NCBI GenBank assembly: GCA_024275045.1
Contig: JAJRZX010000041.1
Span: 1 to 54,177 of the forward strand
Length of the DNA: 54,177 nucleotides
Direction: 5' to 3'
Source: Deltaproteobacteria bacterium
Lineage (GTDB): Bacteria; Desulfobacterota; GWC2-55-46; JADFVP01
Positions within the stretch are counted from its first letter, which is position 1. The number at the start of each line of letters is the position of its first letter. Below, piece by piece: positions 33,190 through 50,415 of this stretch. The position numbers were made by a program, and so were the translations under genes. The notes beneath the pieces are model-generated. The model was not told the origin of the DNA and did no database searches. It saw nothing but the letters and a program-made list of their open reading frames with translations.

Positions 33190-33218
33190 TTGACAAAGGC
33201 ATTGATATTTTATATCAT
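33190..33218 (+). promoter_or_regulatory. Sigma70 promoter of the act operon with an overlapping palindromic operator
   Basis: TTGACA-17-TATCAT; perfect inverted repeat TGATAT-TTT-ATATCA at 33203-33217 overlaps the -10. Confidence 0.65.
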
Positions 33219-33412
33219 CCCACAAACAGTTATACTTTTTATGATTTAATGCCTTGCCGTTGCACTCCTTTTCCATAGTCCGCAAAAAATTAGCGGAAGG
33301 GAGAATCGTCTGCGAAACTCATCGTAGGGCTTTTAGTTATCGCAGGGTTGTATTGCAGCATGAGGCAAGGGTAAGGATAGACTCTTATAACTCTATTTAA
33401 GAAGCTACGTCC

Positions 33413-33925
33413 ATGATCCTGAAAAAACTCGTCATATTGGCGGCAGTATTTTTCGTGGCCTTTGTCATAGGCTACGGCATTGATGCCGCTCTTCGCACGG
33501 ATCTTGATCCTGTGCAGCCCATAAAATTCAGCCATAAGATACATGCAGGCACAAACGAGATACCGTGTCAGTTCTGCCATATTTACGCCGAGAGGTCCCG
33601 TGTCTCCGGTGTGCCTAATGTGCAGCGCTGCATGGGGTGCCACAAGATTATTAAGACAGAGAGCCCTGAGATAAAGAAACTCACGGCATACTGGGATAAA
33701 AGAGAACCAATTCCGTGGACAAAAGTACATAATCTCCCCGATTATGTCTACTTCCCCCACAAAAGGCATATAAGGGCAGGGCGTAAATGCGCTGATTGCC
33801 ACGGCGACATCGCTTCCATGGACAGGGTAAGACGCGTCTCCTCTTTGCAGATGGGGTGGTGCCTGCAATGCCACAAGAAGTACGATGTTAAGAACGGTCA
33901 GGCATGCTGGACCTGTCACATATAA
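33413..33925 (+). CDS. actA: Pentaheme cytochrome c, ActA/QrcA-type
   Basis: N-terminal TM, QPIKFSHKIHAG, five CxxCH (CQFCH, CMGCH, CADCH, CLQCH, CWTCH), LPDYVYFPH. Confidence 0.9.
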   Translation: MILKKLVILAAVFFVAFVIGYGIDAALRTDLDPVQPIKFSHKIHAGTNEIPCQFCHIYAERSRVSGVPNVQRCMGCHKIIKTESPEIKKLTAYWDKREPIPWTKVHNLPDYVYFPHKRHIRAGRKCADCHGDIASMDRVRRVSSLQMGWCLQCHKKYDVKNGQACWTCHI

Positions 33926-34110
33926 GGCGTGGGGGGTAGTTGCGGGTGCGGGGAGCCTTGTCTAAGACGGGCAGCTAAAGGGGCCGGGGCGATACGGTTG
34001 GGGATGAGTTAGCAAGGGGAGTGAGGATCAGGGGAGGCTTTAAGGTCTGTCTGTAACGGGTCAGTGAGAGAGAAGGGCCTTTAAATATACAGTTTTTTAT
34101 CGGACAAAAG

Positions 34111-36411
34111 ATGAAACGTAGAGATTTTCTAAAATATATCGGAGTGGGCGGCGCAGGCGTAGTTCTCGGCGGGGTTTTTGGCAAGATCTCAAGGCCGCCG
34201 GGTGCAAAGCTTATCCCCTACCTTATCCCGCCTGAGGATATTATCCCCGGCGTGGGGGCATGGTATTCCAGCCTCTGCACGCAGTGCCCTGCGGGCTGCG
34301 GCACCGTGGTAAAGGTCATGGACGGCAGGGCCAAGAAGGTAGAGGGCAACCCTCTGCATCCGGTGAACAAGGGAAAGCTCTGCGCAAGGGGGCAGGCAGG
34401 TCTTCAGGCCCTATATAACCCGGATCGCATAAAGGCGCCCATGAAGAGAAAGGGCACCCGCGGTAACGGCAAGCCCGGAGAATTTGAAGAAATATCATGG
34501 GAGCGGGCATTAAAGATTCTTTCCGCCAATATTAAGGACCTCTCAGATAAGGGCGAGGCAGAGGGGGTTTATCTCCGTACCAATACAGTTCGCGGTCATC
34601 TGGATAAGCTTTTTGGCGGATTCATGGAGAGCCTTGGTTCACCCAATTACAGCCAGTACGAGCTCTATGATTACAGGAGCCTGCGTTTTGCCAATAAGGC
34701 GGCCTTTGCCATTGACGCCATACCTCATTACGATATTGCCAACGCCTCCATGGTACTCTCCTTTGGGGCTGATTTTAACAGCACCTGGATATCTCCGGTT
34801 AACTACGGTTATGCTTACGGCGAGATGCGCCAGGGCAGCGGAGTAAGAGGCAGGCTCGTTCATGTGGAGCCGCGTATGTCCCTCACCGGCGCCAATGCCG
34901 ATGAGTGGGTGCCCATAAGGCCGGGTACAGAGGGCATCTTCGCCCTCTCCATAGCATACGCGATTCTGGACGCCGGGCTTTATTCCGGTAAGGACGTGGC
35001 AAAGTGGAAGACAGCCCTTGCGGGTTTTTCCCCATCAGCTACGGCAAGGACAACAGATGTGGCCGCAGCAAGGACGCTTAAGCTTGCAAAGGAGTTTGCC
35101 GCAGCTGAGAGGCCCCTTGCCATAGGCGGAGAGGTTGTTGCAGGTTATGATAACGGCGTAAGCAGCCTGCTTGCCGTAAATATATTAAATTACCTCGGCG
35201 GCGGCACCGGCGCTAAAGGCGGTATCATACCTAACCCTGATGAGCTCTTTTTTGCCGACGGCACTCAAGAGATGGACTTTGAGAGAGGCATCGCGGGTTT
35301 TGTTAAAGACGCGGCCTCCTCAAAAGTTAAAGTCCTTATGCTTCATAACACAAATCCGCTCTTTACCACCTCGCCGAAACTCGGCCTGGAGCTTGCGCTT
35401 AAAAAAGTGCCCTTTATATGCGCCATGACATCTTTTATGGATGAGACCTCGGCCATGGCCGACCTTATCCTGCCCCTGCATACCTCTTTTGAGGAGTGGG
35501 GCGATGACTTTACCAATCCTGCCGTGGGCGCGCCTGTGGCTACTCTCATGCAGCCCGTTGTAAGCCCTGTCTTTAATACCAGGGGGGCGGGAGACATCTT
35601 CGTGGCGCTTGCCAGCGCTATTGGCGGTAAAGTGGCCGAGGACCACCACTGGATGAGTTATGCCGAGTATCTCCGTGCGGCCTGGAATGATTTATATGAT
35701 AAGAACGCTGAGATCTCACGCGGAACCCTTACCTTTGACGGGTTCTGGAACAAGCTTCTGCAGGAGGGCGGCTGGTGGAAGAAGGCCGTTAATCCGTCTG
35801 GAGTTAAGGCCCTTTCAACTACGCCTAAAAAGGTGGGCAAGGGGCTCTTCGCCAAACCTGCCAAGTTTGCCGGCAAGATGTCTGATTATCCCCTCTACCT
35901 TATGCTCTACCCTCAGGCAGGGCACCTTGACGGGCGCGGGGCTAACCTGCCCTGGCTCCAGGAGCTGCCCGACCCCATTACCACGGTGGTTTGGGGAAGC
36001 TGGGTAGAGATAAACCCCGTAACAGCAAAGCAGCTTGGCTTTAAAGAAGGCGATAAGGTAAGGATTGAGTCCCCCTATGGTTCCATCAAGGCATTTGTCT
36101 TTCCATACGCCGGGATCAGGCCCGATACAGTGGCCCTCCCCATAGGGCAGGGACACAAGCTCTACGGCAGGTACGCCAAGGGCCGCGGTGTTAACCCCAT
36201 TGAGATAATTCCCGCTGTGGCGGATAAAGACTCCGGTGCCATGGCCCTTAACTGCACACGCGTGAAGGTAGAGCACTCCGGAGGCTCGGGACGCCTTGTT
36301 AAGATTGAGCCCACGGCCAAGGAGCACGGCAAGCCCACTCAGCACGGCAGGCCCATTGTGCAGACTATTACCAGCCGCGAGTATAAAAGACTTAAAAAGG
36401 AGACTACATAA
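34111..36411 (+). CDS. Molybdopterin-oxidoreductase-like subunit of alternative complex III (ActB1/QrcB-like), Tat-exported
   Basis: MKRRDFLK Tat motif, IPYLIPPEDIIPG, CTQCPAGC-x27-C, ANLPWLQELPDP.T..W. Confidence 0.88.
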   Translation: MKRRDFLKYIGVGGAGVVLGGVFGKISRPPGAKLIPYLIPPEDIIPGVGAWYSSLCTQCPAGCGTVVKVMDGRAKKVEGNPLHPVNKGKLCARGQAGLQALYNPDRIKAPMKRKGTRGNGKPGEFEEISWERALKILSANIKDLSDKGEAEGVYLRTNTVRGHLDKLFGGFMESLGSPNYSQYELYDYRSLRFANKAAFAIDAIPHYDIANASMVLSFGADFNSTWISPVNYGYAYGEMRQGSGVRGRLVHVEPRMSLTGANADEWVPIRPGTEGIFALSIAYAILDAGLYSGKDVAKWKTALAGFSPSATARTTDVAAARTLKLAKEFAAAERPLAIGGEVVAGYDNGVSSLLAVNILNYLGGGTGAKGGIIPNPDELFFADGTQEMDFERGIAGFVKDAASSKVKVLMLHNTNPLFTTSPKLGLELALKKVPFICAMTSFMDETSAMADLILPLHTSFEEWGDDFTNPAVGAPVATLMQPVVSPVFNTRGAGDIFVALASAIGGKVAEDHHWMSYAEYLRAAWNDLYDKNAEISRGTLTFDGFWNKLLQEGGWWKKAVNPSGVKALSTTPKKVGKGLFAKPAKFAGKMSDYPLYLMLYPQAGHLDGRGANLPWLQELPDPITTVVWGSWVEINPVTAKQLGFKEGDKVRIESPYGSIKAFVFPYAGIRPDTVALPIGQGHKLYGRYAKGRGVNPIEIIPAVADKDSGAMALNCTRVKVEHSGGSGRLVKIEPTAKEHGKPTQHGRPIVQTITSREYKRLKKETT

Positions 36412-37170
36412 GTGTCCGGTGTGATAGATAAGATAAAAGAGCGCCTCAAGGACTTCAGGAGGCCCGGTTATTATAAGGAGTTCGATCACCACTACGCCAT
36501 TGTCATTGACGTGGACAGGTGCAACGGATGCGAGGCATGCGTGGTATCCTGTTACGCAGAGAACAACCTGCCCGTTGTAGGCGAGCAGGGCTGTGAGGAC
36601 AACAGGGTATTTAACTGGCTCCGGATAGAGCGCTACATTGAGGGCGAGTACCCTGATGTGAAGGTCAAATTCATCCCCGTAATGTGCCAGCAGTGCGACG
36701 CCGCTCCATGTGAGATAGGTTGCCCGGTTTACGCCACCTATCACAATCAGGACGGGCTTAATGTGCAGGTCTACAACCGCTGCGTGGGTACCTTTACCTG
36801 CGCCACATACTGCCCTTATGATGTGAGGCGTTTTAACTGGTTCAGCTACAAATGGGATAAACCCCTTGATGAGCAGCTGAACCCCGATGTTACGGTACGC
36901 GAGATGGGTGTTATGGAAAAATGCACCTTCTGCATCCAGAGAATAAGAGGCGTCAACGATAAGGCCAAGGACGGGAAGAGAAAGGTAAAGGACGGCGAGA
37001 TTCAGACCGCGTGCGCCCAGTCCTGTCCCACCGGGGCCATTACATTTGGAGATTTAATGGACCCCGAGAGTAAGGTCTCAAAACTGGCGGCAAGCAAGCG
37101 CGGGTATAAGCTCTTTGAGAACCTTGAGACCAAACCATCTGTCATCTACCTGAAAAGGGTAATGGATTAA
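36412..37170 (+). CDS. Fe-S subunit of alternative complex III (ActB2/QrcC-like)
   Basis: CNGCEAC..C, CQQC..PC..CP, RCVGTFTC..CPY (Thr for Cys, [3Fe-4S] type), MEKCTFC; AAGGAG RBS before GTG. Confidence 0.9.
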   Translation: MSGVIDKIKERLKDFRRPGYYKEFDHHYAIVIDVDRCNGCEACVVSCYAENNLPVVGEQGCEDNRVFNWLRIERYIEGEYPDVKVKFIPVMCQQCDAAPCEIGCPVYATYHNQDGLNVQVYNRCVGTFTCATYCPYDVRRFNWFSYKWDKPLDEQLNPDVTVREMGVMEKCTFCIQRIRGVNDKAKDGKRKVKDGEIQTACAQSCPTGAITFGDLMDPESKVSKLAASKRGYKLFENLETKPSVIYLKRVMD

Positions 37171-38555
37171 TGTCTAATAACGAGTCCAAGAGGGTTATAC
37201 CATACAGCGAAGTTAACGACGACGTACTTCGCACCATGACCAAGACAGGCCCGGGCTACTACGTGGCCCTTGTGGTCTGCTTTTTACTTGCCGCAGGGCT
37301 CTGGGGCGGCGCGTGGTTTTATCAGATTTACGTAGGTCAGGGAGTCTCCGGGCTGCAGACCCCGGCTTTCTGGGGCATCTATATCGCCAACTTCATCTTC
37401 TGGATAGGTATCAGCCATTCGGGCACCCTGCTATCTGCCATTCTATTCATAACGCAGACCCCGTGGCGTAGATCTATTTACCGAAGCGCCGAGGCCATGA
37501 CGTTTTTCTCCGTTATGACGGCGGCTATCTTTATCTTTGTTCATATGGGCAGACCCTGGAATTTTTACTGGACCATGCCGTATCCCAACCAGCGGCTCCT
37601 CTGGGTGAACTTCCTCTCTCCCCTTATGTTTGATGTTCTTGCCATCAGCACATATGCCACGTCTTCCATGATATTCCTTTACTTCGGTTCAATACCGGAT
37701 CTTGCCGCCGTAAGGGACAGGACCACAGGCTGGAGAAGAGAGTTCTACGGATGGCTCTCTCTGGGCTGGAGAGGTACGGACGCGGAGTGGCACTGGCTTA
37801 ATAAGGCATACGGCTTCTTCGCAGTCTTTATTATCCCACTTGCCGTATCCGTGCACTCCATTGTCTCATGGGACCTTGCCCTCTCCATGGTGCCGGCCCT
37901 TAATAAGACGATATTCGCCCCGTACTTTGTTGTTGGAGCCATATACTCGGGCTCCGCGGCTATTGTTACCCTTATGATATTTGTGAGAAAGTTCCTTAAG
38001 GTGGAGAAATACATCACCATCGACCACCTCTCAAAGCTCTGCATGCTCCTTCTTGTAATGTCCCTTATATGGAGCTATATCAACGTCATGGAGGTCTTTA
38101 CGGGTTGGTACGCCAATACCAATTATGAGAATGAGGCCATGATCTACCGTATGTTCAAGAGCCCCATTGCTATTATATACTGGCTCATGATAGCGACAAA
38201 CACTGTTGCGCCTCTCTTCCTTATGTTTAGAAGCATAAGAAGGTGCGTGCCTATAATATTTTTCATATCCATCGGTATAAACGTGGGCATGTGGATAGAG
38301 AGGTATCTTCTCGTTGTATCCACTCTGCCGAGAAAGTACTTCCCCTTCATGTGGAACAGTTATCTGCCGAGCCTTGCGGAAATATCCATGACAGTGGGCT
38401 CGTTCTTTTTCTTTGCCGTATTATTTCTGCTCTTTATTAAACTATGGCCCAGTATCTCTATCTACGAGGTTAAGGAAGATATAGGGATACCCAGGAAAAA
38501 GCCTCATACAAAGGAAATGGATCATGAAGATGGCTCCCCTACTTGGTATATATAA
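37170..38555 (+). CDS. actC: NrfD/PsrC-family quinol-binding subunit ActC
   Basis: WGIYIANFIFWIGISHSGTLLSAIL, HMGRPW, SPLMFD, SVHSIVSWD, PYFVVGAIYSG, GMWIERY. Confidence 0.92.
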   Translation: MSNNESKRVIPYSEVNDDVLRTMTKTGPGYYVALVVCFLLAAGLWGGAWFYQIYVGQGVSGLQTPAFWGIYIANFIFWIGISHSGTLLSAILFITQTPWRRSIYRSAEAMTFFSVMTAAIFIFVHMGRPWNFYWTMPYPNQRLLWVNFLSPLMFDVLAISTYATSSMIFLYFGSIPDLAAVRDRTTGWRREFYGWLSLGWRGTDAEWHWLNKAYGFFAVFIIPLAVSVHSIVSWDLALSMVPALNKTIFAPYFVVGAIYSGSAAIVTLMIFVRKFLKVEKYITIDHLSKLCMLLLVMSLIWSYINVMEVFTGWYANTNYENEAMIYRMFKSPIAIIYWLMIATNTVAPLFLMFRSIRRCVPIIFFISIGINVGMWIERYLLVVSTLPRKYFPFMWNSYLPSLAEISMTVGSFFFFAVLFLLFIKLWPSISIYEVKEDIGIPRKKPHTKEMDHEDGSPTWYI

Positions 38556-39057
38556 GCACGCCGATACCATGATGGAAGCGGCCGACAAGCTGCAGAACAC
38601 GGGGTATGAGGTGACGCTGTTCTCGCCTGTGCCGCTGGGCCATGAGCCCGAGTACAGCGCCGTTCAGCAGCGCCATAATTATGTGCGCTACTTTACCCTC
38701 TTCGGCGGGGTAGCAGGTTTTATCTTCGGTATTTTGCTTACTCTGGGCACGGCCGTTATGTATATACTTCCAAGGGGCGGAAAACCGGTCTTTGCCATGA
38801 CACCAACCCTGCTTATCTCTTACGAGACAGCCATACTCTTTGGTGTTCTCTGGACCTTAATGGGTTTTCTTGTTATCGCAAAGCTACCCTATTACGGGAA
38901 AGACAGGCTGTACGACCCTGTGGTTAATGTAGATGGTTTTGGTCTTCTTGTTGATGGAATCCGTGATGATATGTACGATGTGGTCGAGGGGGTACTCAGA
39001 GAATTCGGGGCCCACGAGGTTAGACTCCTTACACGCGGGATAGAAGAAGAGGCTTGA
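38524..39057 (+). CDS. actD: ActD (DUF3341) membrane subunit
   Basis: FSPVPL, two TM helices, GGKP...P...YE..ILF; follows actC. Confidence 0.85.
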   Translation: MKMAPLLGIYKHADTMMEAADKLQNTGYEVTLFSPVPLGHEPEYSAVQQRHNYVRYFTLFGGVAGFIFGILLTLGTAVMYILPRGGKPVFAMTPTLLISYETAILFGVLWTLMGFLVIAKLPYYGKDRLYDPVVNVDGFGLLVDGIRDDMYDVVEGVLREFGAHEVRLLTRGIEEEA

Positions 39058-39578
39058 TGAAAACTCTAAGGATAATTATATTGGGCACTCTTATGGCCCT
39101 TATTGCGCCGGCCATGGCTCATGCATGGCCCTGGTCCTGGGATATGTACCACCAGAAAAATCACAGGGCACAGGAAGAGCCGGCGCCCAAGCAGCCCGAG
39201 GGTATTGTAAACACAGAGGGTAAACCCTTCTTTGCCAATGACAGGGTGGAGTCCTCGGCCATTAAAAGTCCCGTTGCACCTGATGCCGCCTCCATAAAAA
39301 GAGGACGTAAAATGTACAGGACATATTGCCTGCCCTGTCACGGCGCAACAGGGCACGGAGACGGGCTTGTAGGTATAAAGTACATACCTCCAACGGACCT
39401 TACCATGGATTATGTTCAGAATAAACTGGACGGAGATATCTTCTATACCATTACCAACGGCGGTCTGGCTGTCATGCCTTCTTACAGGGACTCAGTATCA
39501 AAGACGGACAGGTGGCATATAATAAATTATATCAAGCACGGTCTAACCAGCGAAAAGACGGCGAAGAAAGATGAATAA
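39054..39578 (+). CDS. actE: Monoheme cytochrome c ActE
   Basis: Signal peptide, DMYHQ, YCLPCHG..G.GDG, DGDIFYTITNG, MPSY, DRWHIINYI. Confidence 0.88.
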   Translation: MMKTLRIIILGTLMALIAPAMAHAWPWSWDMYHQKNHRAQEEPAPKQPEGIVNTEGKPFFANDRVESSAIKSPVAPDAASIKRGRKMYRTYCLPCHGATGHGDGLVGIKYIPPTDLTMDYVQNKLDGDIFYTITNGGLAVMPSYRDSVSKTDRWHIINYIKHGLTSEKTAKKDE

Positions 39579-40752
39579 ATACGGCTTCAGGTCCATGTTA
39601 CTACCGGTCCTCCTTATAATTCTGGCAAATGCTATCTTTACCTTTGCCTATGTGGCCTCAACCAATAGCGAGAGTCAGACCCTCTGGGGGCTGCTGGCTG
39701 TTAATTATCTCTTTTTTCTCGGCCTTACTCAGACAGGCATTATCTTCTCCACTATCATGCGTGTGGCAAAATCCACATGGGCCACTTATTTCAACCGTCT
39801 CGGAGAGATACTCACGCTTGCCACTTTGCCTGTTGCCGTTATAGGCTTTCTGGTGCTTTTTTACGGCGGAGCAGAGCATCTTTTCTACTGGATGGGCGCT
39901 CACGGCGGCGAGGCCGCAGGTCACGGAGGCGGCGAGATGAGCCCCTGGCTTAACAAAAACTTTTTCCTCTGGAGATACGTAGCCACAATGGTGCCGTTTT
40001 ATTTCCTGAGCTACCTGTACTTTCGCGGCAGCCGCGCTGAAGAGACTCACAGAGAGGTGCCGAATTGTCTTAGAGTAAAGATGAGTTTTCTCGGCGGTTT
40101 TATTATGTTCTTCTACGTCTTTGCCAATACCAATCTGGCCTGGGACTTTGCCATGATGAACATCCCCCACTGGGAGAGCACAATATTTCCCGGTTACTAC
40201 TGGGTGGGTAATCTCCTCGTAGGCCCGGCTTTTCTCTTTATACTTGCCCGTGTATTTATCGGCAGAAGACCCGGCGTACCTTTTGACCTTGATTACATCG
40301 AGCCTATGGGTAAGCTGCTCATGGGTTTCACCCTGACGTGGATATACATGTTCTGGTCTCAGCACATAGTCATGTGGTACCCTGAGCTCTCGCACAGGTA
40401 CGGCCCTCTCCTTGAGAGGATGAGCGGAAACTATCTCCTTGTTTTCGTGGCCATGATGCTGGCCTTATTTATCATTCCATTCTTTATGCTTGTATTCCGC
40501 AGGATAAAACTTACTGTCTTCGGCCTTACCACAGTGGCTGTTATATTATGTTTTGGTATGTGGCTGAACCGTTACCTCATGATTATACCCACCTACTCCG
40601 ACGGCTCTACACCAACGCTTGGGACTTATGTCAATATATCCCTTGCCCTGGGTTTTATTTCCGCGGCCCTGCTCTCTCTTATATGTTTTTTCAGGCTTTT
40701 TCCCGACGTTACCATAAGAGCGAAAGGCGCAGCCCCATCCAAGGGGCATTGA
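39571..40752 (+). CDS. actF: ActF membrane subunit (NrfD paralog)
   Basis: About 10 TM segments, PWLNKNFF, WDFAMMNIPHWESTIF, W.YMFWSQHIVMWY; last gene of the act operon. Confidence 0.85.
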   Translation: MNKYGFRSMLLPVLLIILANAIFTFAYVASTNSESQTLWGLLAVNYLFFLGLTQTGIIFSTIMRVAKSTWATYFNRLGEILTLATLPVAVIGFLVLFYGGAEHLFYWMGAHGGEAAGHGGGEMSPWLNKNFFLWRYVATMVPFYFLSYLYFRGSRAEETHREVPNCLRVKMSFLGGFIMFFYVFANTNLAWDFAMMNIPHWESTIFPGYYWVGNLLVGPAFLFILARVFIGRRPGVPFDLDYIEPMGKLLMGFTLTWIYMFWSQHIVMWYPELSHRYGPLLERMSGNYLLVFVAMMLALFIIPFFMLVFRRIKLTVFGLTTVAVILCFGMWLNRYLMIIPTYSDGSTPTLGTYVNISLALGFISAALLSLICFFRLFPDVTIRAKGAAPSKGH

Positions 40753-41041: not shown

Positions 41042-41407
41042 ATGAAAAAGAGTTTAATATTTTTACCGGCACTGGCCCTTTTAACGCTCGTACTCGTACC
41101 TGATGTATGGGCCGAGGGAGCCGAAGGCGCGCATCAGGCCGCGGGTAACGCAAAGATACTGTTCTTTACAGGCGTAGGCATGGCCGCGGCAATAGGTATG
41201 GCCATTGCTTCCTTTGGTACCGGTCTTGGTAAGGGTAACGCCGTAAGAGGCGCTGTTGAAGGAATCGCAAGAAACCCCGGCGCATCGGGTAAGATTCTCT
41301 CAACACTGCTTATCGGTCTTGCCATGATAGAGTCCCTTGCCATATACACTCTCGTCATAGCCCTCATACTTCTCTTCGCTAACCCTTTCCTCGGATTAAT
41401 CGGCTAA
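41042..41407 (+). CDS. atpE: F-type ATP synthase subunit c with N-terminal signal-like extension, orphan copy
   Basis: GxGxG helix, EGIARNP loop, [11 protein letters not shown] with carboxylate Glu97, LFANPF end. Confidence 0.95.
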
Positions 41408-41666: not shown

Positions 41667-41699
41667 AAGGCTCTGTCATCTGAGGCAGGGCCTTTTTTT
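41667..41699. terminator. Hairpin terminator between convergent genes
   Basis: AAGGCTCTGTC-ATCTGA-GGCAGGGCCTTTTTTT. Confidence 0.6.
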
Positions 41700-42588
41700 A
41701 GTGGCCTTTAAGCAGGACTTCCTCTATCTCTGTCTCCCGCTCACTGTCTACGGCAACCTTATGATTAAACTCCAGAAAACTCTCTCTGGTTATCTTAAGT
41801 CTGTATATGCCGGGCTTTAAGTAAAGGCGCTGCGGGCTAAGCCCGTAGTATATACCGTTAAGGTAGATCTTTGCCCTTTCAGGCTCAGTCGTGATACTTA
41901 GTACTCCCCTTGAAATCTTCTGATGATTATCCGCTCTTGTCTCTATCGCAAAACTCTTATTGCCGTATGAACTTTGCCCTGACTCTCTATCTCTTAAGGC
42001 AAGCTCAGTACGGGTGAGGGCTTTTTTTATAACTTTTTCAAGAGACGCGGAGATATATTTTTTGATGCTCCTTCTGGAATCACCGGATACGCCTGCGTAT
42101 CTGCTCTCTGATATATCGACAATTCCGCTACAAATATTTACGTTACTGCCAACCCTCTTAAACTCCATGTACAGAGTTATATTAATCCTGTCTTTTGAGG
42201 CAATCTCAAGGTGAAACTTTTGCAGCTCTGTCTTTAGTTCATACTCGATTTTTTTTTTACCAGAGCTCTCTGCCACGGTGAATCCACCACGGGTAAACCC
42301 GGCAATCATGGCCTCGTGTACTGCCACGGCAGGGTTTTCTGATAAGATAAGCTCATTACCTGATATATTAACTACCGTGGAGCGAAGTTCGCCTATCTTA
42401 TTTATATTATTTATTGCACCGCGGCTGTCTTGCACCGGTGCGATGTATATGGAGAGTCCGTTTTTATTCTCAGGCACGGGTGCGTTCTTTGAAGGTGTAT
42501 AGGCATACTGCAGCGGTGCGCCGCAGCCGAATGCAAGGGCGCTTAAGATGATTAAGAGGTAAATATTGCTGTATACTCTGTTTTTCAT
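41698..42588 (-). CDS. Lipoprotein with YajG-like region and C-terminal PEGA domain
   Basis: Lipobox LAFGC; C-terminal LSITTEPERAKIYLNG.YYG.SP..L.LKPG.Y.LKI (PEGA). Confidence 0.75.
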   Translation of the reverse strand: MKNRVYSNIYLLIILSALAFGCGAPLQYAYTPSKNAPVPENKNGLSIYIAPVQDSRGAINNINKIGELRSTVVNISGNELILSENPAVAVHEAMIAGFTRGGFTVAESSGKKKIEYELKTELQKFHLEIASKDRINITLYMEFKRVGSNVNICSGIVDISESRYAGVSGDSRRSIKKYISASLEKVIKKALTRTELALRDRESGQSSYGNKSFAIETRADNHQKISRGVLSITTEPERAKIYLNGIYYGLSPQRLYLKPGIYRLKITRESFLEFNHKVAVDSERETEIEEVLLKGH

Positions 42589-42791: not shown

Positions 42792-44018
42792 TTAAAAGGC
42801 AGCGAAGATCATTAAGGTTGTAAGCTGGTCTCCGTTGGCCAATTCGTTATTGGCAGGGATATCAAAGAAGTCACCTGAGTTAAAGCTGTGGTTTACCTGC
42901 AGCTCGAAGTTCTGTGCCAGCAGGAAGGTTGCGCCCACTGTTACGGCGGACTCTGTGCTTGGACCTATGGCCCCGGAGTTACCATCGCGGTAACCCGCTG
43001 CAACGGTGACTCTTCCCGGCAGTACACCAACCTCGGCAAGTACAGACCAGGCTCTCTTGTCACCGGGGTTGCTGTTGAAAATATTCATGGGTTCGTTTGC
43101 TGTTGAGCCCTGGGCCTCGGCATAGTTAAGATAGATACCAATTGGCAGGCTCAGTATAGAGCCCTGGGCCTGCGCGTCCAAGGCCCAGCCTCTGGCGCTC
43201 TCGCGTGTGCCGTTGCCGAGTTTTGTTGTGCCCAGAAAGAGCTGACCTCCTGCGGCAAGGTCCCAGCCCGCAAGTGTACGTGTGCCCACAAGGCGCAGGT
43301 ACTGGAGGAAGGGCCCTGAGTCAGAGGTGCCCGCCTCAGGCTGCCATGGAGTAAAACTAAAGTAGCCCGTGTTGTGAGAGGCCACAAAGGCTACGCCCTG
43401 CGCCGCGTGTTTCAGACCTACGTATTGAATGGCTGAGATCTCGGCCTTATGTTCAAGGACGCGTATATTGGCTACTGCCCCGGTGTTGAGCAGCTCAAAG
43501 GCAAACTGCGGGCCAAGACCGGCCGTGGCAAAGGGGACAACGCTAAAGTGAGCGCTCTTTACATCAAAGCCTATAGGTGCCTTGAAGTTAGCGAACATGG
43601 AGCTGCCGGAGTCTGCCATCTGCCCCTCAAGGAGAAAGCCGATGCGTTCGCCGATGCGCCCGGCGAGAAAGAGCGCGGCCTCATCTGGAAACTGTAACTC
43701 ACCCTTATTGGTACCCGAGTCGTTCACGTCTCCATTGGTCTTCTGAAAACGTACCTTTGTAACTATGGAAGCGTTCAGAGTTGCCGGCAGGGAGAGGAGA
43801 TCGCCTTCCACAAGGCTCTGGCCCCCTACCATGGTAAAGCCGTTTGCCTTAAAGACCCTGCCAAAGGCGTTAAGGCTCGGGTAGTGCTGGTAGTGACAGG
43901 TATTGCATGCCATACCCGTCTGTCTTGCAAAAGAAGGGATAGCCCAGGAGACATCAGGCCATAGAGATAGGATCGTCAGCATAATCGCGGTGAAGGTAAA
44001 AAAGATGAACTTTTTCAT
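42792..44018 (-). CDS. cyc2: Cyc2-type fused monoheme cytochrome-porin (candidate outer-membrane Fe(II) oxidase)
   Basis: Signal peptide, then AIPSFARQTGMACNTCHYQHYPSLNAFGRVFKANGF (PxFARQT, CxxCH, PxLxxFG), amphipathic beta-strand body and C-terminal Phe. Confidence 0.88.
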   Translation of the reverse strand: MKKFIFFTFTAIMLTILSLWPDVSWAIPSFARQTGMACNTCHYQHYPSLNAFGRVFKANGFTMVGGQSLVEGDLLSLPATLNASIVTKVRFQKTNGDVNDSGTNKGELQFPDEAALFLAGRIGERIGFLLEGQMADSGSSMFANFKAPIGFDVKSAHFSVVPFATAGLGPQFAFELLNTGAVANIRVLEHKAEISAIQYVGLKHAAQGVAFVASHNTGYFSFTPWQPEAGTSDSGPFLQYLRLVGTRTLAGWDLAAGGQLFLGTTKLGNGTRESARGWALDAQAQGSILSLPIGIYLNYAEAQGSTANEPMNIFNSNPGDKRAWSVLAEVGVLPGRVTVAAGYRDGNSGAIGPSTESAVTVGATFLLAQNFELQVNHSFNSGDFFDIPANNELANGDQLTTLMIFAAF

Positions 44019-44265: not shown

Positions 44266-44352
44266 GCCCGAGTGGCGGAACTGGTAGACGCACGGGACTT
44301 AAAATCCCGAGTCTTAACGGACGTGCCGGTTCGACCCCGGCCTCGGGCACCA
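44266..44352 (+). tRNA. tRNA-Leu (anticodon TAA)
   Basis: GCCCGAG/CTCGGGC acceptor stem, D-loop GGTAGAC, anticodon loop CTTAAAA, long variable arm, GGTTCGAC T-loop, encoded CCA. Confidence 0.96.
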
Positions 44353-44933
44353 TCTTTTCTTAATACTTTATACAGACCTGCAAAGTGATTGAAGGTTGCT
44401 CTTGCTTGCGCAGCTTGCACAGTGGCAGCGGCTCACGTCATGCGTACCTGTTCACTATTTCGGTTTAAAATAATTAAAAGCTTATAAATAACAATTCGTT
44501 AGCTGCTAAAGTATCTCCTTCGTCAGGCACCCTCCGGTCTCTTGAAAATCCATACCGATTGAGCCCGTGCACAAGCTCCCGGCATTGGGCGCTTATATTG
44601 CATTAAATTGTTTTCTTATATCAGGGCATGTGCTGTTACACATGCATAGATAGCTTGCGCTAAAAGCTTTAATCTGGTAATATAAAAAACACGTATCCTC
44701 TTGTGGGGTACGTAGCTGTATATCTTCTTGTAACCCTAAATACCTCAAACAACAATCAGGTGCCTTACCTCCGTAGTTTTTCCCTCACCGGATATTAACT
44801 GCCGATATTCCTGTACAGGCGATGAGCTGTTGTGAAAATTATGCCGGTGCCGGTCATGGAAGTTAATCACATAAGACATCTTTAAATATTTTCAGTGGTT
44901 TTAACGAACAGGCAACCTTGATGAGGTCTTCCC

Positions 44934-46352
44934 TTGGCCATTGCAAAATCCGTAGAAAAACTTCTGGTACGGTATAAGAGTTTTTTTCCCTATATACATG
45001 CGCTCATGTTTCTTGTTTTCGGGGCATTGATCTTTATCCCTGCCTTTCTGCCCTTTCCGGGAGATGAGGCCACGATTGGGAATAATTTTACACTCTTCGC
45101 CAGATTTGCCGTCTGGGGGCTATGGTTCCCCTTGATGCTGGTCTCGGTTATATTCTTTGGCAGGCTCTGGTGCGGGCTTTTATGTCCGCAGGGAGCGCTT
45201 AGCGAGTTTATGAGCCGATGGGGGCTAAACAGGCACGTGCCAAAGTGGATGCGTAGGGCATGGATACCCATAGCGGCATTTTTGGTAATAACCATTACCG
45301 GCAAGCTTCTTGGTGTAGACGAGTTTCCGCTGGGTACCTTTGAGATACTCGGGACCACTATGGTGCTCGCGGCCATTGTGGGGTTTTTATATGTAAGGGG
45401 CATGAGGCCCTGGTGCCGCTATCTCTGTCCCATTGGGGCGCTGCTTGGAGTGTTCTCACGTATGGGAGCGGTAAGTTTTGAGAGAACTGAAGACCATGGT
45501 GAGGCCGCAGCAGAGAGACGAAGAGAGGGATGGGATAGAAGGGGCAAGAGTGAGAATTCTTACAGAGGGCCTGAGCGGCGAAAGTGTCATAGAAGAACCA
45601 ATATATGTCCCACATTTATAAACCCCAATACAAAGGCTGCCAGTTCACACTGCATTGAATGTTTTAAATGCGTTAATAAGGATAACCAACCGTACTCACT
45701 TCACCTTAAGCTCAGGCGCCCGGGTGTGGAGATTGAGGAGATAGAGAAAAGGGATCCCAACAGGTGGGAGGTTATATTCCTCTTCGCGGCTACTGGTCTG
45801 GGGCTTGGTGATTTTCACAGCGAGGCGGGCACTTTCTTTGCAAAGTACACGGCTGCGCTGGGCACGCTCCTTGGCAAACTTGGCCTTGCCGAACTCATGG
45901 GCAGAAGCGGGCCGCGGTGGCTCATGATGAATTACCCTGAATACGGCGAGGTGCTCACGTGGTCAGACTCTGTAGCTTTAATAACATTCATCACCGCGTT
46001 CATGCTTGGCGTACTGTTTATCTTATACGCACTTACCGCTACCTCGGCCTTTATCCTTGATAAGTACAGGGATAACCTGGCCCTGGGTTATCTTTACGCT
46101 CCCATTGCTCTGGTCTCCCTTGTGGTGGGTGTTGGCGGGGTAATCTTCAGTACCCCCGATGTTTTTGGTTTAAGCGAGAGCGTGGTCCACGTTGCGGAGG
46201 CTGCAACCTTTGCGCTTGGAGGGCTGTGGAGTCTATACCTTGCCCTTAAGCTTACGGCCCATGCCTCTGCGGCACGTCAGGCCATGGCAATGGCTCCAAA
46301 CCTCCTTGGCATCACGGTGGTAGCTTTTCTGTGGTTTCAGGTACTTTTTTAG
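44934..46352 (+). CDS. Membrane polyferredoxin of the NapH/FtrD family
   Basis: NNFTLFA.F..WGLW.P, GRLWCGLLCPQGALSE, RPWCRYLCPIG, CPT...CIECFKC; many TM helices. Start codon uncertain. Confidence 0.8.
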   Translation: MAIAKSVEKLLVRYKSFFPYIHALMFLVFGALIFIPAFLPFPGDEATIGNNFTLFARFAVWGLWFPLMLVSVIFFGRLWCGLLCPQGALSEFMSRWGLNRHVPKWMRRAWIPIAAFLVITITGKLLGVDEFPLGTFEILGTTMVLAAIVGFLYVRGMRPWCRYLCPIGALLGVFSRMGAVSFERTEDHGEAAAERRREGWDRRGKSENSYRGPERRKCHRRTNICPTFINPNTKAASSHCIECFKCVNKDNQPYSLHLKLRRPGVEIEEIEKRDPNRWEVIFLFAATGLGLGDFHSEAGTFFAKYTAALGTLLGKLGLAELMGRSGPRWLMMNYPEYGEVLTWSDSVALITFITAFMLGVLFILYALTATSAFILDKYRDNLALGYLYAPIALVSLVVGVGGVIFSTPDVFGLSESVVHVAEAATFALGGLWSLYLALKLTAHASAARQAMAMAPNLLGITVVAFLWFQVLF

Positions 46353-46785: not shown

Positions 46786-46794
46786 TGCTATAAT
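46786..46794 (+). promoter_or_regulatory. Extended -10 element upstream of the NrfC/NrfD module
   Basis: TGCTATAAT; inverted repeat AAGCATA-N12-TATGCTT follows at 46824-46849. Confidence 0.45.
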
Positions 46795-46999
46795 TCAAAG
46801 TACAGAATTAGGGCAATGTACAAAAGCATATATCTTGAATTGTATGCTTCAGGGGGTACGGGGTTTTTGGCGGCATGTACGGGGCCTGAACTCTCTCGCA
46901 AAGGCTCTCAAAGGGTACTGAGTTTTATCTCCCTGTATTATGAGGTTCTGTGGTACCGCAGGTGGTGCGAGGTTTTTTAAGCATAAGGAGGGGGATCAT

Positions 47000-47311
47000 A
47001 TGGCTGAGTGTAAAGACAAACCCGTTGAATCTGTAGATAAGAGCTTGAGTAATAAGTTGGAAAAAAATATGACGAGGCGTAGTTTTATTAAGAGCACCGT
47101 GGTTGCCGGGCTCGCAGTTGCCGGCGGAGCCGCGGTAGCTAAAAAAACAATGCAGGCGGTTCTGAAGGAGGACACCAAAAAACTCTACAGAGCGGATGAG
47201 CTGGGTGTTGAGCGTACCTGGAAAGACAGAAAGTTTGAACTCATGAGCAAGAACGAGAAGGCAGAGATGGTCTCCGCTCTTATTGACTCTTATGAATCGG
47301 TAAAAAAATAA
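47000..47311 (+). CDS. Small protein with twin-arginine-like signal, unknown function
   Basis: AAGGAGGGG RBS before ATG 47000; MTRRSFIKS followed by a hydrophobic segment. Confidence 0.75.
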   Translation: MAECKDKPVESVDKSLSNKLEKNMTRRSFIKSTVVAGLAVAGGAAVAKKTMQAVLKEDTKKLYRADELGVERTWKDRKFELMSKNEKAEMVSALIDSYESVKK

Positions 47312-47355
47312 GCGCGTTTTCTGTAATATCAATAATATCAGCGGAAGAGGTTTTC

Positions 47356-48369
47356 ATGACAAAAGAGAATAAAAAGGGACCAGAGACTGATTCTCCAGGG
47401 GCAGGGAAACGCCGTAAGTTCCTTAAGGATATGGGTAAAGTTGGTATTGCCGCGGCCATACTCGGAGCCACCGAGGGGCTCTCGGCAAAGGAAGCCGATG
47501 CGCGTACAACATGGGCCGAGTACTTTCAGAAGAACTACAGGCTTATGACGGATGATGAGAAGAAAGAGGCCATCGCACGGCTTGAGGAAAGGTACACTGA
47601 GGAGTTCAAAAAAAATGTCACTGTAGACGATACTCCGGCCATGGAAGGGGTGCTCTTTGGCATGGCCCTTAATATCCAGAAGTGCATTGGGTGCAGAAGG
47701 TGCGTTTACGGCTGTGTTAAGGAGAACAACCAGTCACGCTCTGAGAAACAGATTCAGTGGATAAGGGTTATTGAGATGGAGAAGGGGAGCTTTTCTCCCA
47801 AAAAGCTGCAGGATGGAAATATTCAGACAGGGGCCTTTGCCGGAGAGAATGCCGGTGTTACCCTTGAGGGAGAGCACTACTACGAGCCTCCCCGTGTCCC
47901 GGAAAAAGGGCATTTTTACTTCCCCATAGCCTGTATGCAGTGTGAAAAACCCCCCTGTGTCAAGGTCTGTCCGGCGCGCACAACATACCGTGAGCCCGAC
48001 GGCGTAGTTGTTATCGACTACAACTGGTGTATTGGTTGCAGGATGTGCATTACCGCATGTCCGTACTGGGCAAGGCGCTTTAACTGGGGTACGCCTGAAC
48101 TGCCCACAGAAGAGCTTAATCCCGTGACCCACTATCTGGGAAACCGTCCAAGGATGATGGGGGTAGCAGAGAAGTGCACCTTCTGTCTACAGAGGACAAG
48201 AAAAGGCAGGTTCACGGCATGCGTTGAGGCCTGTCCCGTGGGAGCCCGCAAGTTTGGCAACCTTCTCGACCCTGAGAGCGAGGTGCGCAAAGTTATAGAG
48301 AAAAAGAGGGTCTTCAGGCTGAAAGCTGAGCTAAATACATACCCTAAATTCTTTTATTTTATAGATTAA
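47356..48369 (+). CDS. Tat-exported 4x[4Fe-4S] subunit (NrfC/PsrB/DsrO family)
   Basis: KRRKFLK, CIGCRRC..C, CMQCEKPPCVKVCP, CIGCRMCITACPY, EKCTFC..ACVEACP. Confidence 0.9.
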   Translation: MTKENKKGPETDSPGAGKRRKFLKDMGKVGIAAAILGATEGLSAKEADARTTWAEYFQKNYRLMTDDEKKEAIARLEERYTEEFKKNVTVDDTPAMEGVLFGMALNIQKCIGCRRCVYGCVKENNQSRSEKQIQWIRVIEMEKGSFSPKKLQDGNIQTGAFAGENAGVTLEGEHYYEPPRVPEKGHFYFPIACMQCEKPPCVKVCPARTTYREPDGVVVIDYNWCIGCRMCITACPYWARRFNWGTPELPTEELNPVTHYLGNRPRMMGVAEKCTFCLQRTRKGRFTACVEACPVGARKFGNLLDPESEVRKVIEKKRVFRLKAELNTYPKFFYFID

Positions 48370-48378
48370 GAGGTGTAA

Positions 48379-50415
48379 GTGAGAAATATTCTTAGATTCG
48401 CCGTAGATGTTTTGCTCTATGCCTTCACGGGCGGCTCAAAGCTCTTTTACATATGGCTTGGCTTTCTCTCTGTTCTGGCCCTGATGATGATTTACGGTTC
48501 CTACCTGCAGACCGTAAACGGCATGGTGGTTACCAACTACAACGACCAGGTCAGCTGGGGCATATACGAAGCGCAGTTTATCTTTCTTGTAGGTGTGGCC
48601 GCCGCCGCCGTGACGATAATCTTCCCGGCATATGTCTATAAACACAAGTATATGAAAAATCTTGTGATTATAGGCGAGCTGCTGGCCATCTCATCTATCT
48701 ACATGGTCCTGCTTTTTATCATGCTTCACATGGGCAGACCTGACAGGCTCTGGCACATGATGCCTATTGTGGGTATCTTTAATTTTCCAAACTCCATACT
48801 CGCATGGGACGTAATGGTAGTTAACGGCTACTTTTTTATCAATGTCACAGCCGCATTCTACTACCTCTATACAAAGTACCGGGGCAGGGAACTGAATATG
48901 ACCTTTTACAAACCCCTTGTCTACCTCTCCATTGTCTGGGCCGTCTCTATTCATACGGTTACGGCATTTCTCATAAGCACGCTGCCGGCCAGACCCATGT
49001 GGTACAACTCCATAATGCCCATAAAGTTTATAACCACGGCCTTTGCTGCCGGCCCGTCCATGATAATCATCGCCTTTCTTATCATCAGAAAGGTAACAAG
49101 GCTGAAGATCGAGGACAAGGCTATTGATATGCTCTCCCAGATTATAGCCTGGTCCTTAACTATAGTTATTTTTCTGGGGCTATCGGAGGTTGTTACAGAG
49201 CTCTATCATGTTACAGAGCACTCTTTCTCTCTGCAGTATCTGATATTCGGACATGAGAGTTTCAGAGGTCTGGTGCTGTGGTACAGGTCTGCCGTAATCC
49301 TGCTGCTCTTCTCTTTTGTGATATTTATTATTCCACAGCTCAGGAAGAGCCGTACCTTCTGGCTGCCCATCGCCTGCGTGGCCACATTCGTGGGTATCTG
49401 GATAGATAAGGGCATGGGCCTTGTGGTGCCTGCCTTCATACCAAGCCCTATCGGTGAGTTCTCGGAGTATACGCCTTCAATGATAGAGATAATCAATGTC
49501 CTTGGTGTCTGGGCAACGGGGTTATTTCTCTTTACCGTTATGACGAGGGTGGCCATAGGCATTGCCTCGGGGGATCTGAGACACCAGCCCAGGGAAATGT
49601 GGCGCCTCTCGTCTCAATGGAAGAGCAGGGGCAAGGCGCTGTATAAAAACCTTGTGGTGGCCGCTGTTCTTTTTTCTGCCGCCTGCTTTGCCTTGCCTGC
49701 GATAGCTACCGCTAAGCATGGAGACGCAGAGTCCATTGTGACTGAAGAGCCCTCGGAGTGTTTTGAGAGCAGAGAGGTCTACTCAACAAGGCAGAGAAGA
49801 GAGATAGCCCCCGGTGTCTCAAATATAAAGTGCTCGAAGACCACAGGGGCGGTGCTCTGGTTCGGAGACCCTTTTGACGGTACTGTGCCCATGGGAGATA
49901 TGCCCGTAGAGGGCGCCTACTCGCATGAAGAGGCGGTGATTAAGCCAAGGACAAAGCAGCTCCACTGGTACATGCCCTGTACCAGCTGCCACAATGGTGA
50001 GGCCGTTCCTTATCCCAAGAGTAAGGAGCCTCGTCTGCTCACCATGCACACTGATATAGTGGGCAACTCCCTGAGCCTGCAGCACGGCAGGGGGGCCATA
50101 TGGTGTCTGGATTGTCATAACGCCAGGAACAGGGATTACCTTATTGATCACCGCGGTAAGAAAATAAGTTTTAACCAGCCTCAGAGGCTCTGCGGAAAGT
50201 GTCACGGTCAGATCTACGGCGACTGGAGGCTGGGAATACACGGTAAAAGGATAGGCGAGTGGTCCAGCGGGGCCAAGAAGAGATGGTGGGTCTGTACGGA
50301 ATGTCATAACCCGCATCTGGTGCAGGTAAAGAGGTTTGAGCCCATTAAACCCGAGCCCAGACCGGATTACCCGCGTACAAGGACCAAGGCCGATTATGAG
50401 AACGGCAAACATTGA
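48379..50415 (+). CDS. NrfD/DsrP-family membrane subunit fused in frame to a tetraheme cytochrome c
   Basis: VSWGIY, HMGRPDRLWH, SILAWD, SIHTVTAF, WIDKGMG in about the first 400 aa; CTSCH, CLDCH, CGKCH and CTECH in the C-terminal part. Confidence 0.88.
   Translation: MRNILRFAVDVLLYAFTGGSKLFYIWLGFLSVLALMMIYGSYLQTVNGMVVTNYNDQVSWGIYEAQFIFLVGVAAAAVTIIFPAYVYKHKYMKNLVIIGELLAISSIYMVLLFIMLHMGRPDRLWHMMPIVGIFNFPNSILAWDVMVVNGYFFINVTAAFYYLYTKYRGRELNMTFYKPLVYLSIVWAVSIHTVTAFLISTLPARPMWYNSIMPIKFITTAFAAGPSMIIIAFLIIRKVTRLKIEDKAIDMLSQIIAWSLTIVIFLGLSEVVTELYHVTEHSFSLQYLIFGHESFRGLVLWYRSAVILLLFSFVIFIIPQLRKSRTFWLPIACVATFVGIWIDKGMGLVVPAFIPSPIGEFSEYTPSMIEIINVLGVWATGLFLFTVMTRVAIGIASGDLRHQPREMWRLSSQWKSRGKALYKNLVVAAVLFSAACFALPAIATAKHGDAESIVTEEPSECFESREVYSTRQRREIAPGVSNIKCSKTTGAVLWFGDPFDGTVPMGDMPVEGAYSHEEAVIKPRTKQLHWYMPCTSCHNGEAVPYPKSKEPRLLTMHTDIVGNSLSLQHGRGAIWCLDCHNARNRDYLIDHRGKKISFNQPQRLCGKCHGQIYGDWRLGIHGKRIGEWSSGAKKRWWVCTECHNPHLVQVKRFEPIKPEPRPDYPRTRTKADYENGKH

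Follow-up and report, generated by a model that had tools for sequence, protein, structure and literature searches.

A candidate Fe(II)-oxidation block of alternative complex III, atpE, cyc2 and a lipoprotein gene beside a strain-specific redox insert in a deltaproteobacterial genome

We analyzed the contig JAJRZX010000041.1 of a Deltaproteobacteria bacterium (hereafter the window, meaning all of its 54,177 nt), with the focus on cyc2, a gene for a candidate Fe(II)-oxidizing cytochrome-porin, on the lipoprotein gene paired with it, and on a neighboring operon for an alternative complex III (ACIII). Genes were identified by open reading frame (ORF) calls together with Pfam and NCBIfam profile scans. 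They were compared across 31 genomes, namely the host genome (G000; assembly of 2.28 Mb, 99.2% complete) and 30 relatives, eight of which are congeners, and across 80 named loci recovered in a scan for Cyc2, with one genome per species. A preliminary description of this DNA had suggested that five elements, the ACIII operon, an isolated atpE, cyc2, a membrane polyferredoxin and an NrfCD-tetraheme module, could form a chain from the outer membrane to the quinone pool, their linkage being positional. All five were recovered at the positions it gave, and the region start that it chose, position 33190, is the same as that of a promoter-like site; it had left unmentioned a PEGA-domain lipoprotein gene, a tRNA-Leu(taa) gene, a gene for a small protein with a twin-arginine translocation (TAT) signal, and the status of atpE as sole c-subunit gene of the genome. 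Our comparisons indicate that the region probably comprises two different things: a conserved block of ACIII-atpE and cyc2-lipoprotein genes with a proposed route for Fe(II) oxidation, and a strain-specific segment.

On the reverse strand, cyc2 (42792..44018) codes for a fused monoheme cytochrome-porin of 408 aa, recognized by its single CXXCH and a regular expression for the Cyc2 motif. The second gene of the same operon (41698..42588, reverse strand), 204 bp downstream, codes for a predicted outer-membrane lipoprotein with a PEGA domain (PF08308, 47.1 bits). Using a profile of 12 homologues of this lipoprotein, and counting genome matches at E <= 1e-10, we found exactly one match per genome in 19 of the 31 genomes. 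In 17 of these 19 the lipoprotein gene immediately follows the Cyc2 match, on its strand, and in the remaining two (G018 and G019) the genes are on separate short contigs. The pairing of cyc2 with the lipoprotein gene is near-obligate and is the most useful new point of this analysis. Of the 80 named loci, 11 have the lipoprotein gene immediately after cyc2 and 18 contain it at some position, including Rhodocyclales-type loci in which one or two diheme cytochrome genes separate it from cyc2. One such betaproteobacterial operon (L016, 9986-13895) consists of cyc2, two consecutive genes for diheme cytochromes c and the PEGA lipoprotein gene, an arrangement that appears to link the lipoprotein to periplasmic cytochromes too. 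In our literature search, no paper connected Cyc2 with a PEGA protein or with any partner lipoprotein.

The lipobox cysteine, Cys22, is invariant in all 12 aligned lipoprotein homologues. A structural model of moderate confidence (pLDDT 78.4, pTM 0.58) displays an N-terminal domain followed by a C-terminal PEGA sandwich, and the fold matches of the N-terminal domain comprise 2iqi (TMt 0.67), PqiC (8q2c), PelC (5t0z and 5t10), CsgG (4uv2) and a chain of LptDE (8h1s). Lipoproteins of the PelC, PqiC, CsgG and LptE types work together with outer-membrane barrels. According to the model, the window protein would have the N-domain fold in common with these barrel-associated lipoproteins (PelC, PqiC, LptE, CsgG and DUF330), along with the lipobox cysteine, whereas sequence identity to them is 8-15% and the C-terminal PEGA domain is an extra feature. 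The pairing suggests a missing component of the Cyc2 system, and the lipoprotein may contact Cyc2 itself; the complex prediction for Cyc2 (residues 26-408) with the lipoprotein (residues 22-296) scored 0.00, which is evidence neither for nor against such contact.

The criteria published for Cyc2, as given in passages of PMC8406198, are a signal peptide, one CXXCH, the motif AXPXFAR[Q/K][T/Y] before the heme site and PXL four residues after it, and further a length of at least 365 aa and a 16-stranded porin barrel like those of OprO and OprP. In the window protein a regular expression for this whole motif (AXPXFAR[Q/K][T/Y], CXXCH and PXL) matches from residue 26; the same expression matches 76 of the 92 sequences of our tree set, and exactly one CXXCH is present in the window protein and in all 92. 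Its 408 aa exceed the published minimum, and the translation begins with a predicted signal peptide, a hydrophobic N-terminus ending in SWA before residue 27. The AlphaFold2 model (47-row alignment; pLDDT 88.5, pTM 0.85) shows a helix at residues 2-18, a low-confidence linker, a short helical heme domain and then about 16 long strands (DSSP, counted by eye). Foldseek searches with this model returned porins exclusively, at probability 1.00, with OprP (2o4v) at rank 6 (TMq 0.52) and OprO (4rjw) at rank 25 (TMq 0.55); these are also the structures named by the Cyc2 authors in the pertinent part of PMC8406198. The protein agrees with every published sequence criterion and, by motif, length, heme count and fold, is a genuine member of the Cyc2 family, which bears out what the preliminary description had claimed for it. 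Its family membership points to activity as an Fe(II) oxidase.

The family is extensive, with 1106 matches among 8000 scored candidates and 1838 representatives at E <= 0.001, and among the Cyc2 matches listed, all with a source name are annotated as hypothetical. In the scan of named loci, for which a 14-row Cyc2 alignment was used, the best match (75% identity) came from an 'uncultured Thermodesulfobacteriota bacterium'; identity was about 46-54% to metagenome-assembled genomes (MAGs) of Deltaproteobacteria and Nitrospirae, 42% to one Chlorobium, and 33-39% over the full length to Gallionellaceae, Sideroxydans and Ferrigenium straubiae. Placed in a quick maximum-likelihood tree (92 rows, with no reference sequences of Clusters 2 or 3 among them), the window Cyc2 falls in an eight-row clade of its own family (SH-aLRT 100). 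This clade is nested in a 19-row clade with Deltaproteobacteria and Nitrospirae MAGs and Chlorobium, which stands beside a 52-row, mostly Gallionellaceae group. The position is that described for the DTB120 Cyc2, which is assigned to Cluster 1 in passages of PMC8114936 and PMC9769843; from its tree neighbors and these accounts, the window Cyc2 would likewise belong to Cluster 1. With members of this cluster (Cyc2PV-1 of Mariprofundus ferrooxydans and those of Gallionellaceae, Chlorobi and 'Ca. Ferristratum'/DTB120) it shares the motifs, the single CXXCH, the length, the porin barrel and the signal peptide, at 33-42% full-length identity to the Chlorobium, Sideroxydans, Gallionella and Ferrigenium loci. 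Unlike the window clade, with its PEGA lipoprotein gene after cyc2, most Gallionellaceae loci lack that gene beside cyc2; and, as a further difference, no cyc1-like gene adjoins the window cyc2.

The ACIII operon lies on the forward strand, to the left of this pair and convergent with it. A promoter-like site upstream of actA (33190..33218; TTGACA-17-TATCAT, 11 of 12 consensus matches) is a pattern match alone. The first gene, actA (33413..33925), codes for a pentaheme cytochrome c with an N-terminal membrane anchor (five CXXCH; Pfam Cytochrome_C7/CIII). It is followed by actB1 (34111..36411), for a molybdopterin-oxidoreductase-like subunit with a TAT signal (Pfam Molybdopterin, Molybdop_Fe4S4 and Molydop_binding), actB2 (36412..37170), for a poly-[4Fe-4S] subunit (Pfam Fer4_11 and Fer4_7), and actC (37170..38555), for an NrfD-type membrane subunit with the quinone site (PF03916, 80.9 bits). 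The last three genes are actD (38524..39057; PF11821 ActD, 97.7 bits against a cut-off of 25.7), actE (39054..39578), for a monoheme cytochrome c (one CXXCH; Pfam Cytochrome_CBB3, 41.9 bits), and actF (39571..40752), for a probable second NrfD-like membrane subunit. ActF scores 25.3 bits with PF03916, just under the cut-off of 25.8; it cross-matches ActC at 22-26% identity in tblastn, and its position is consistent with ActF. ActC matches the corresponding chains of solved complexes in the PDB at E 1e-97 to 1e-107 (6f0k_C, E 1.1e-106; 6lod_C; 8k9e_C; 6btm_C, E 8.7e-97). Judged from these profile and structure-database matches, actA-B1-B2-C-D-E-F is a predicted complete ACIII.

In common with the solved ACIIIs of Rhodothermus marinus (6F0K), Flavobacterium johnsoniae (6BTM), Roseiflexus (6LOD) and Chloroflexus (8K9E), the window operon has subunits A-E and a probable F in the canonical order, a pentaheme ActA, a monoheme ActE, the ActD signature and a homologous ActC. 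It differs from them in the split of ActB into two genes, B1 (Mo-pterin-like) and B2 (iron-sulfur), in the four N-terminal [4Fe-4S] cysteines that ActB1 keeps, whereas the aligned 6btm_B and 8k9e_B rows lack them, and in being followed by atpE with no oxidase genes after it. The N-terminal cluster motif of ActB1, C-x2-C-x3-C...C, is kept in all six family loci examined. In the PDB, ActB1 matches ArrA at 209 bits, more strongly than the ActB of an ACIII (6btm_B, 138 bits), and also matches 8k9e_B, 6lod_B and 6f0k_B. ArrA and PsrA use a cysteine as Mo ligand, and the aligned position in ActB1 is not a cysteine; ActB1 may stand midway between the catalytic Mo enzymes and ACIII. We also considered the Qrc menaquinone reductase, since it supplies the best NCBIfam matches of ActA (QrcA, 105 bits against a cut-off of 180), ActB1 (QrcB, 321.6 against 440) and ActB2 (QrcC, 229.7 against 400), and rejected this identity as all three scores lie under the cut-offs; the sole NCBIfam match of ActC was to DsrP (66 bits against a cut-off of 350), with no QrcD match listed. 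QrcABCD of sulfate reducers follows the same module logic of multiheme, Mo-pterin-like, iron-sulfur and NrfD-type subunits, whereas the window operon has ActD, ActE and a probable ActF, which Qrc lacks going by its four-subunit name.

Between actF and the lipoprotein gene lies atpE (41042..41407, forward strand), for the c subunit of the F-type ATP synthase (PF00137, 54.8 bits; TIGR01260, 55.4 bits against a cut-off of 43.95). About 45 aa at the N-terminus of this subunit form an extension that resembles a signal peptide. Its gene is the only c-subunit gene of the host genome (a single PF00137 match), atpB is on contig C84, and the place of atpE after actF is kept in relatives. The idea that an orphan atpE takes part in the Fe(II) chain is not supported: it is the sole housekeeping c-subunit gene and a bystander in this neighborhood.

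Three genera of the family share the gene order nadA-clc-actAB1B2CDEF-atpE-(lipoprotein<-cyc2)-tRNA-Leu. Cyc2 matches are present in 25 and ActD matches in 18 of the 31 genomes, the host included in both counts. In seven of the 13 genomes having both genes, cyc2 and actD are 3.7-4.5 kb apart on one contig (G000, G003, G006, G007 and G008 of one genus, and G010 and G011 of two further genera). The full order nadA-clc-actA..F-atpE-lipoprotein-cyc2 was seen by tblastn, which gave no atpE match for the block of G011. A lack of conserved synteny, which the preliminary description had named as grounds for refutation, is therefore not what we see for ACIII, atpE and cyc2, whose order is kept in six relatives (G003, G006, G007, G008, G010 and G011). 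The polyferredoxin and the NrfCD-tetraheme module fall outside the conserved unit. In four further genomes (G001, G004, G012 and G014) the block genes are on separate short contigs, and a 3.4-kb contig of G001 is still ordered atpE-lipoprotein-cyc2. The clc gene of the window (31280-33040, forward strand), for a CLC-type chloride channel with CBS domains, is directly upstream of the act operon, and this place is kept in relatives. At the other end, the tRNA-Leu(taa) gene (44266..44352, forward strand; ARAGORN), found beside cyc2 also in G006, G007, G010 and G011, closes the conserved block, and a variable spot begins there. An ACIII operon is 2.2-2.9 kb upstream of tandem cyc2 genes in three of the 80 named loci (L045, L052 and L067), all betaproteobacterial; we take the intervening genes of L045 and L067, from their N-termini, to be sspA/sspB. 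The linkage of ACIII with cyc2 is real but confined to one family, and independent support for it is limited.

Beyond the tRNA gene, the stretch of 44.4-52.3 kb is a strain-specific insert in a rearrangement-prone spot, and its polyferredoxin and NrfCD module are strain-level accessories. The polyferredoxin (44934..46352, forward strand) is a membrane protein of the Fer4_5 (NapH/CcoG-like) family (PF12801, 47.1 bits). This family-level assignment alone is above cut-off, with NCBIfam scores of 30.2 against 234 for NapH and 24.9 against 316.7 for CcoG; the profile libraries searched held no FtrD-specific model. An operon on the forward strand follows. It starts with the small TAT-signal protein (46940..47311; RRSFIK motif in the translation), which had no family match in the Pfam and NCBIfam scans, and continues with a periplasmic poly-iron-sulfur protein like NrfC and DsrO (47356..48369; Pfam Fer4_11, 71.3 bits) and a membrane protein with a quinone site, like NrfD and DsrP, fused to a C-terminal tetraheme cytochrome c (48379..50415; PF03916, 124.1 bits; four CXXCH). 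An acyltransferase gene (50859..51932, forward strand; PF01757, 95.8 bits) is the last sizeable gene of the insert before pilin-like genes.

The fused NrfD-tetraheme protein occurs in 14 of the 31 genomes and in none of the eight congeners, the polyferredoxin in four of the 31 and in one congener. In G010 the three-gene operon (67, 83 and 79% identical, respectively) is on contig C18 and cyc2 on C20. The flanks of the insert are joined differently in G007 and G005. In G007, cyc2 and tRNA-Leu are followed by an IS3-type transposase remnant, two pilin-like genes that are the counterparts of those at 52.3-54.0 kb of the window, genes for type II secretion or pili, and a Rieske/cytochrome b/diheme cytochrome c set; in G005 the polyferredoxin gene is followed by the pilin-like genes without NrfCD. 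The pilin-like genes are present without the acyltransferase in both, and the region beyond cyc2 differs again in G004 and G005. The IS3-type remnant of G007 (L096, 12746-13360) occupies the place of a 580-bp non-coding stretch in the window (44353-44933), after which the insert follows. We searched downstream for a direct repeat of the tRNA-Leu end of the att kind and found none, and the insert contains no integrase, for which reasons we speak of a variable spot rather than an island. On these grounds, and contrary to the chain suggested in the preliminary description, the polyferredoxin and the NrfCD-tetraheme module are not part of a conserved unit with cyc2.

The NrfD and tetraheme parts are fused in G010 and G012 and match as separate stretches in eight genomes of other families (G015, G018, G019, G021, G022, G023, G025 and G028). 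In three of these (G018, G021 and G028) the NrfC, NrfD and tetraheme genes adjoin a cytochrome b gene and not cyc2. The sites of this unfused module are G028:C1:303000-318000 (L098), G021:C20 and G018:C173, and in G028 a 196-aa ORF and a monoheme cytochrome c gene lie between or beside the module and the cytochrome b gene; the arrangement suggests that the unfused module and cytochrome b may form a larger combined cluster. With modules of the DsrOP, NrfBCD and Cbc types, the window operon has in common a TAT-exported poly-iron-sulfur protein, an NrfD-type membrane protein and a multiheme cytochrome, and we assume a likeness to the Cbc complexes of Geobacter; it differs from DsrOP and NrfBCD in the fusion of the heme domain to the membrane subunit and in the extra small TAT protein. 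Three readings were rejected. DsrMKJOP was set aside with DsrO (187.2 bits against 200) and DsrP (341.2 against 350) under their cut-offs and DsrA above cut-off in none of 13 genomes, the host included. The complex induced by Fe(II) and nitrate in Ferrigenium straubiae has an NrfD that is 24% identical over residues 169-341 only, a case of shared architecture and not of close kinship. A role of the module as replacement of a lost bc complex was dropped because the bc site is an assembly gap.

That gap bears on the respiratory inventory of the genome. We did not find cytochrome b in the host genome, but its expected site falls in the gap between contigs C43 and C93: in G007 (G007:C7:7219-10492) genes for a Rieske protein, a 577-aa cytochrome b with a c1-like tail and a diheme cytochrome c occupy the place that the end of C43 and the start of C93 flank in the host. 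Cytochrome b is present in six of the eight congeners and in G011. A search of the rest of the genome for a terminal acceptor recovered NarGHI, an aa3-type oxidase and an oxidase like nitric oxide reductase (NOR). NarG, NarH, NarI and CoxB score above their NCBIfam cut-offs and CoxA, with 569 bits, below its cut-off of 670.75; there are four COX1-family matches including the NOR-like gene, and NuoG is also present. Across the comparison set, narG was found at E <= 1e-50 in 23 of 31 genomes. The three NrfD-family genes of the host are all in the window. Domains of class-I cytochrome c gave ten matches in the host, nine of them over the cut-off, several being small ORFs of 116-132 aa. Elsewhere in the window, a 270-aa ORF (10463-11275, reverse strand) matches only positions 343-405 of the model for heme-copper oxidase subunit I, and near it lies a gene for a 111-aa monoheme cytochrome c (12251-12586, forward strand), which counts among the small class-I matches.

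A cluster at 20739-25101 of the window contains genes for oxygen-independent ubiquinone synthesis, with UbiV, UbiB and UbiT above NCBIfam cut-offs and UbiE and a BMFP-family gene, presumably ubiK, identified by Pfam; UbiU is above cut-off elsewhere in the genome (G000:C116:4220-5200). MqnA and MqnD were not found in the host genome, and the quinone pool is probably of the ubiquinone type. UbiTUV is not known from outside Pseudomonadota and, if that restriction holds, its presence in a lineage labeled Thermodesulfobacteriota is unexpected. The nearest named relatives are indeed 'Thermodesulfobacteriota bacterium' MAGs, in line with the Desulfobacterota-like host of the preliminary description. 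Its suggestion of a DTB120-type organism also agrees with the inventory of cyc2, narGHI and a NOR-like oxidase, which is that published for DTB120 'Ca. Ferristratum' (PMC8114936, in part). The co-occurrence of cyc2 with narGHI is likewise a trait reported there, and the presence of cyc2 in DTB120-type bacteria is already published (PMC8114936).

We propose the following route for the conserved block. Cyc2, with its monoheme cytochrome fused to a porin of the 16-strand type, most likely oxidizes dissolved Fe(II) at the cell surface; the lipoprotein would be its putative outer-membrane partner, helping it to assemble or serving as plug or scaffold. Small periplasmic monoheme cytochromes c would take up the electrons from Cyc2 and hand them downhill to the aa3-type or NOR-like oxidase. 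Alternatively, the cytochromes would drive ACIII backwards, at the cost of proton motive force, into what is probably a ubiquinone-type pool, which would in turn feed NarGHI and complex I. NarGHI draws electrons from quinol, and therefore a coupling of Fe(II) oxidation to nitrate reduction needs entry into the quinone pool. Going by redox potentials, the uphill step through ACIII would be small with a ubiquinone-type pool. A route from Fe(II) via Cyc2, periplasmic cytochrome c, ACIII and quinone to Nar is plausible; its Fe(II) oxidase activity, the direction of electron flow through ACIII and the type of quinone are inferences. The insert operon for the small TAT protein, the NrfC-like protein and the NrfD-tetraheme fusion may provide a second module between quinone and periplasmic cytochromes. 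At its broadest, the proposal is speculative and rather unlikely to hold in full: in a large Cyc2 clade, covering the taxonomic order of the host, many MAGs of Deltaproteobacteria, Nitrospirae and Nitrospinota type and some Rhodocyclales, the oxidase would be a two-protein outer-membrane device with a dedicated lipoprotein combining a PelC/LptE-like and a PEGA domain, and in the window family it would be wired via reverse ACIII into an anaerobically made ubiquinone pool, enabling the enzymatic coupling of Fe(II) oxidation to NarGHI.

The significance of such a route lies in the long-standing question of whether Fe(II) oxidation and nitrate reduction can be enzymatically coupled within one organism, for which the step from Cyc2 to quinone has been missing. 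The lineage offers a compact candidate in the form of a conserved ACIII beside cyc2 and genes for oxygen-independent ubiquinone synthesis; were the combination of the two-protein device with reverse ACIII true, Fe(II) oxidation could be coupled enzymatically to nitrate reduction by NarGHI. Accounting for the lipoprotein could also help heterologous expression of Cyc2 and marker-gene surveys. DTB120 'Ca. Ferristratum' is counted among the few candidates for such coupling in a single organism, and its cyc2 and narG transcripts are reported to have risen after addition of Fe(II) (passages of PMC8114936). The terms 'ACIII', 'alternative complex III' and 'quinone' do not occur in the main text of that paper. 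ACIII has been proposed for neutrophilic iron oxidizers, and the portions of the published work that treat it argue both ways.

The alternative that survives best, and a real possibility if still an unlikely one, is positional coincidence: ACIII would work forwards only, from quinol to cytochrome c and on to the aa3 oxidase or NOR in a heterotrophic respirer of nitrate and oxygen, any electrons from Cyc2 would go to terminal oxidases alone, and the adjacency of cyc2 would be inherited core-genome order. Against it stand the independent ACIII-cyc2 neighborhoods of the three betaproteobacterial loci and the dependence of NarGHI on quinol, by which Fe(II)-nitrate coupling of the published type requires entry into the quinone pool. 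Several observations nevertheless weigh in its favor or against parts of the main reading. Since the act genes and atpE are housekeeping genes in single copy, and the block conserves nadA and clc along with them, the adjacency within the family may simply be inherited gene order. Two genomes of other families (G029 and G030) have cyc2 and actD on different long contigs, there is no ActD match in seven Cyc2-bearing relatives (G002, G018, G019, G021, G024, G025 and G028), and five ActD-bearing relatives are without a full Cyc2 match. The congeners carry a bc complex as well, and ACIII cannot be called the only complex III of the host because the Rieske/cytochrome b/c site is an assembly gap. The type of quinone is likewise not settled, as no UbiG was found above cut-off in the host genome. 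The lipoprotein, too, is without a match at E <= 1e-10 in the Cyc2-bearing relatives G024 and G028, and the Cluster 1 assignment is indirect, given the lack of Cluster 2 and 3 references in the tree set. Lastly, meta-omics of Zetaproteobacteria found weak expression of ACIII and led to its being judged dispensable there (passages of PMC7029218), and 'Ca. Ferristratum' is described in the parts of PMC8114936 bearing on its metabolism as a heterotroph without autotrophy genes.

We regard it as doubtful that the Cyc2 homologue and its lipoprotein serve another role, such as Fe(II) detoxification, extracellular electron uptake or donation, or iron acquisition. The Cyc2 authors do caution, in a passage of PMC8406198, that homologues in organisms without known iron oxidation need verification, the lineage is described as heterotrophic (PMC8114936, in part), and the clade with the lipoprotein partner is made up of uncultured MAGs of Deltaproteobacteria and Nitrospirae type; on the other side, none of the family motifs is broken, validation is best for Cluster 1 among the clusters, and the rise of 'Ca. 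Ferristratum' transcripts on Fe(II) addition speaks for iron oxidation. The full version of the preliminary description, in which the entire 17 kb, with the polyferredoxin and the NrfCD-tetraheme module, would be a single island for Fe(II) oxidation that co-evolved, would suit the concentration of redox protein genes within 17 kb but is very improbable and largely refuted by synteny, considering the absence of the fused module from the congeners, its separation from cyc2 in G010, the rarity of the polyferredoxin, the differently joined flanks in G007 and G005, the cytochrome b neighbors of the module in other families and the distant NrfD of F. straubiae.

Three features lie farther from these genes. 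Another CLC-type chloride channel gene with CBS domains is at 6859-8601 on the reverse strand of the window. A 1424-aa protein of the CoA-enzyme activase type, encoded at 12921-17195, contains a DUF2229 domain and two stretches of the BcrAD/BadFG ATPase. The second pilin-like gene, at the end of the contig, includes a tandem 15-nt repeat at 54055-54112, seen as three overlapping 28-nt copies.

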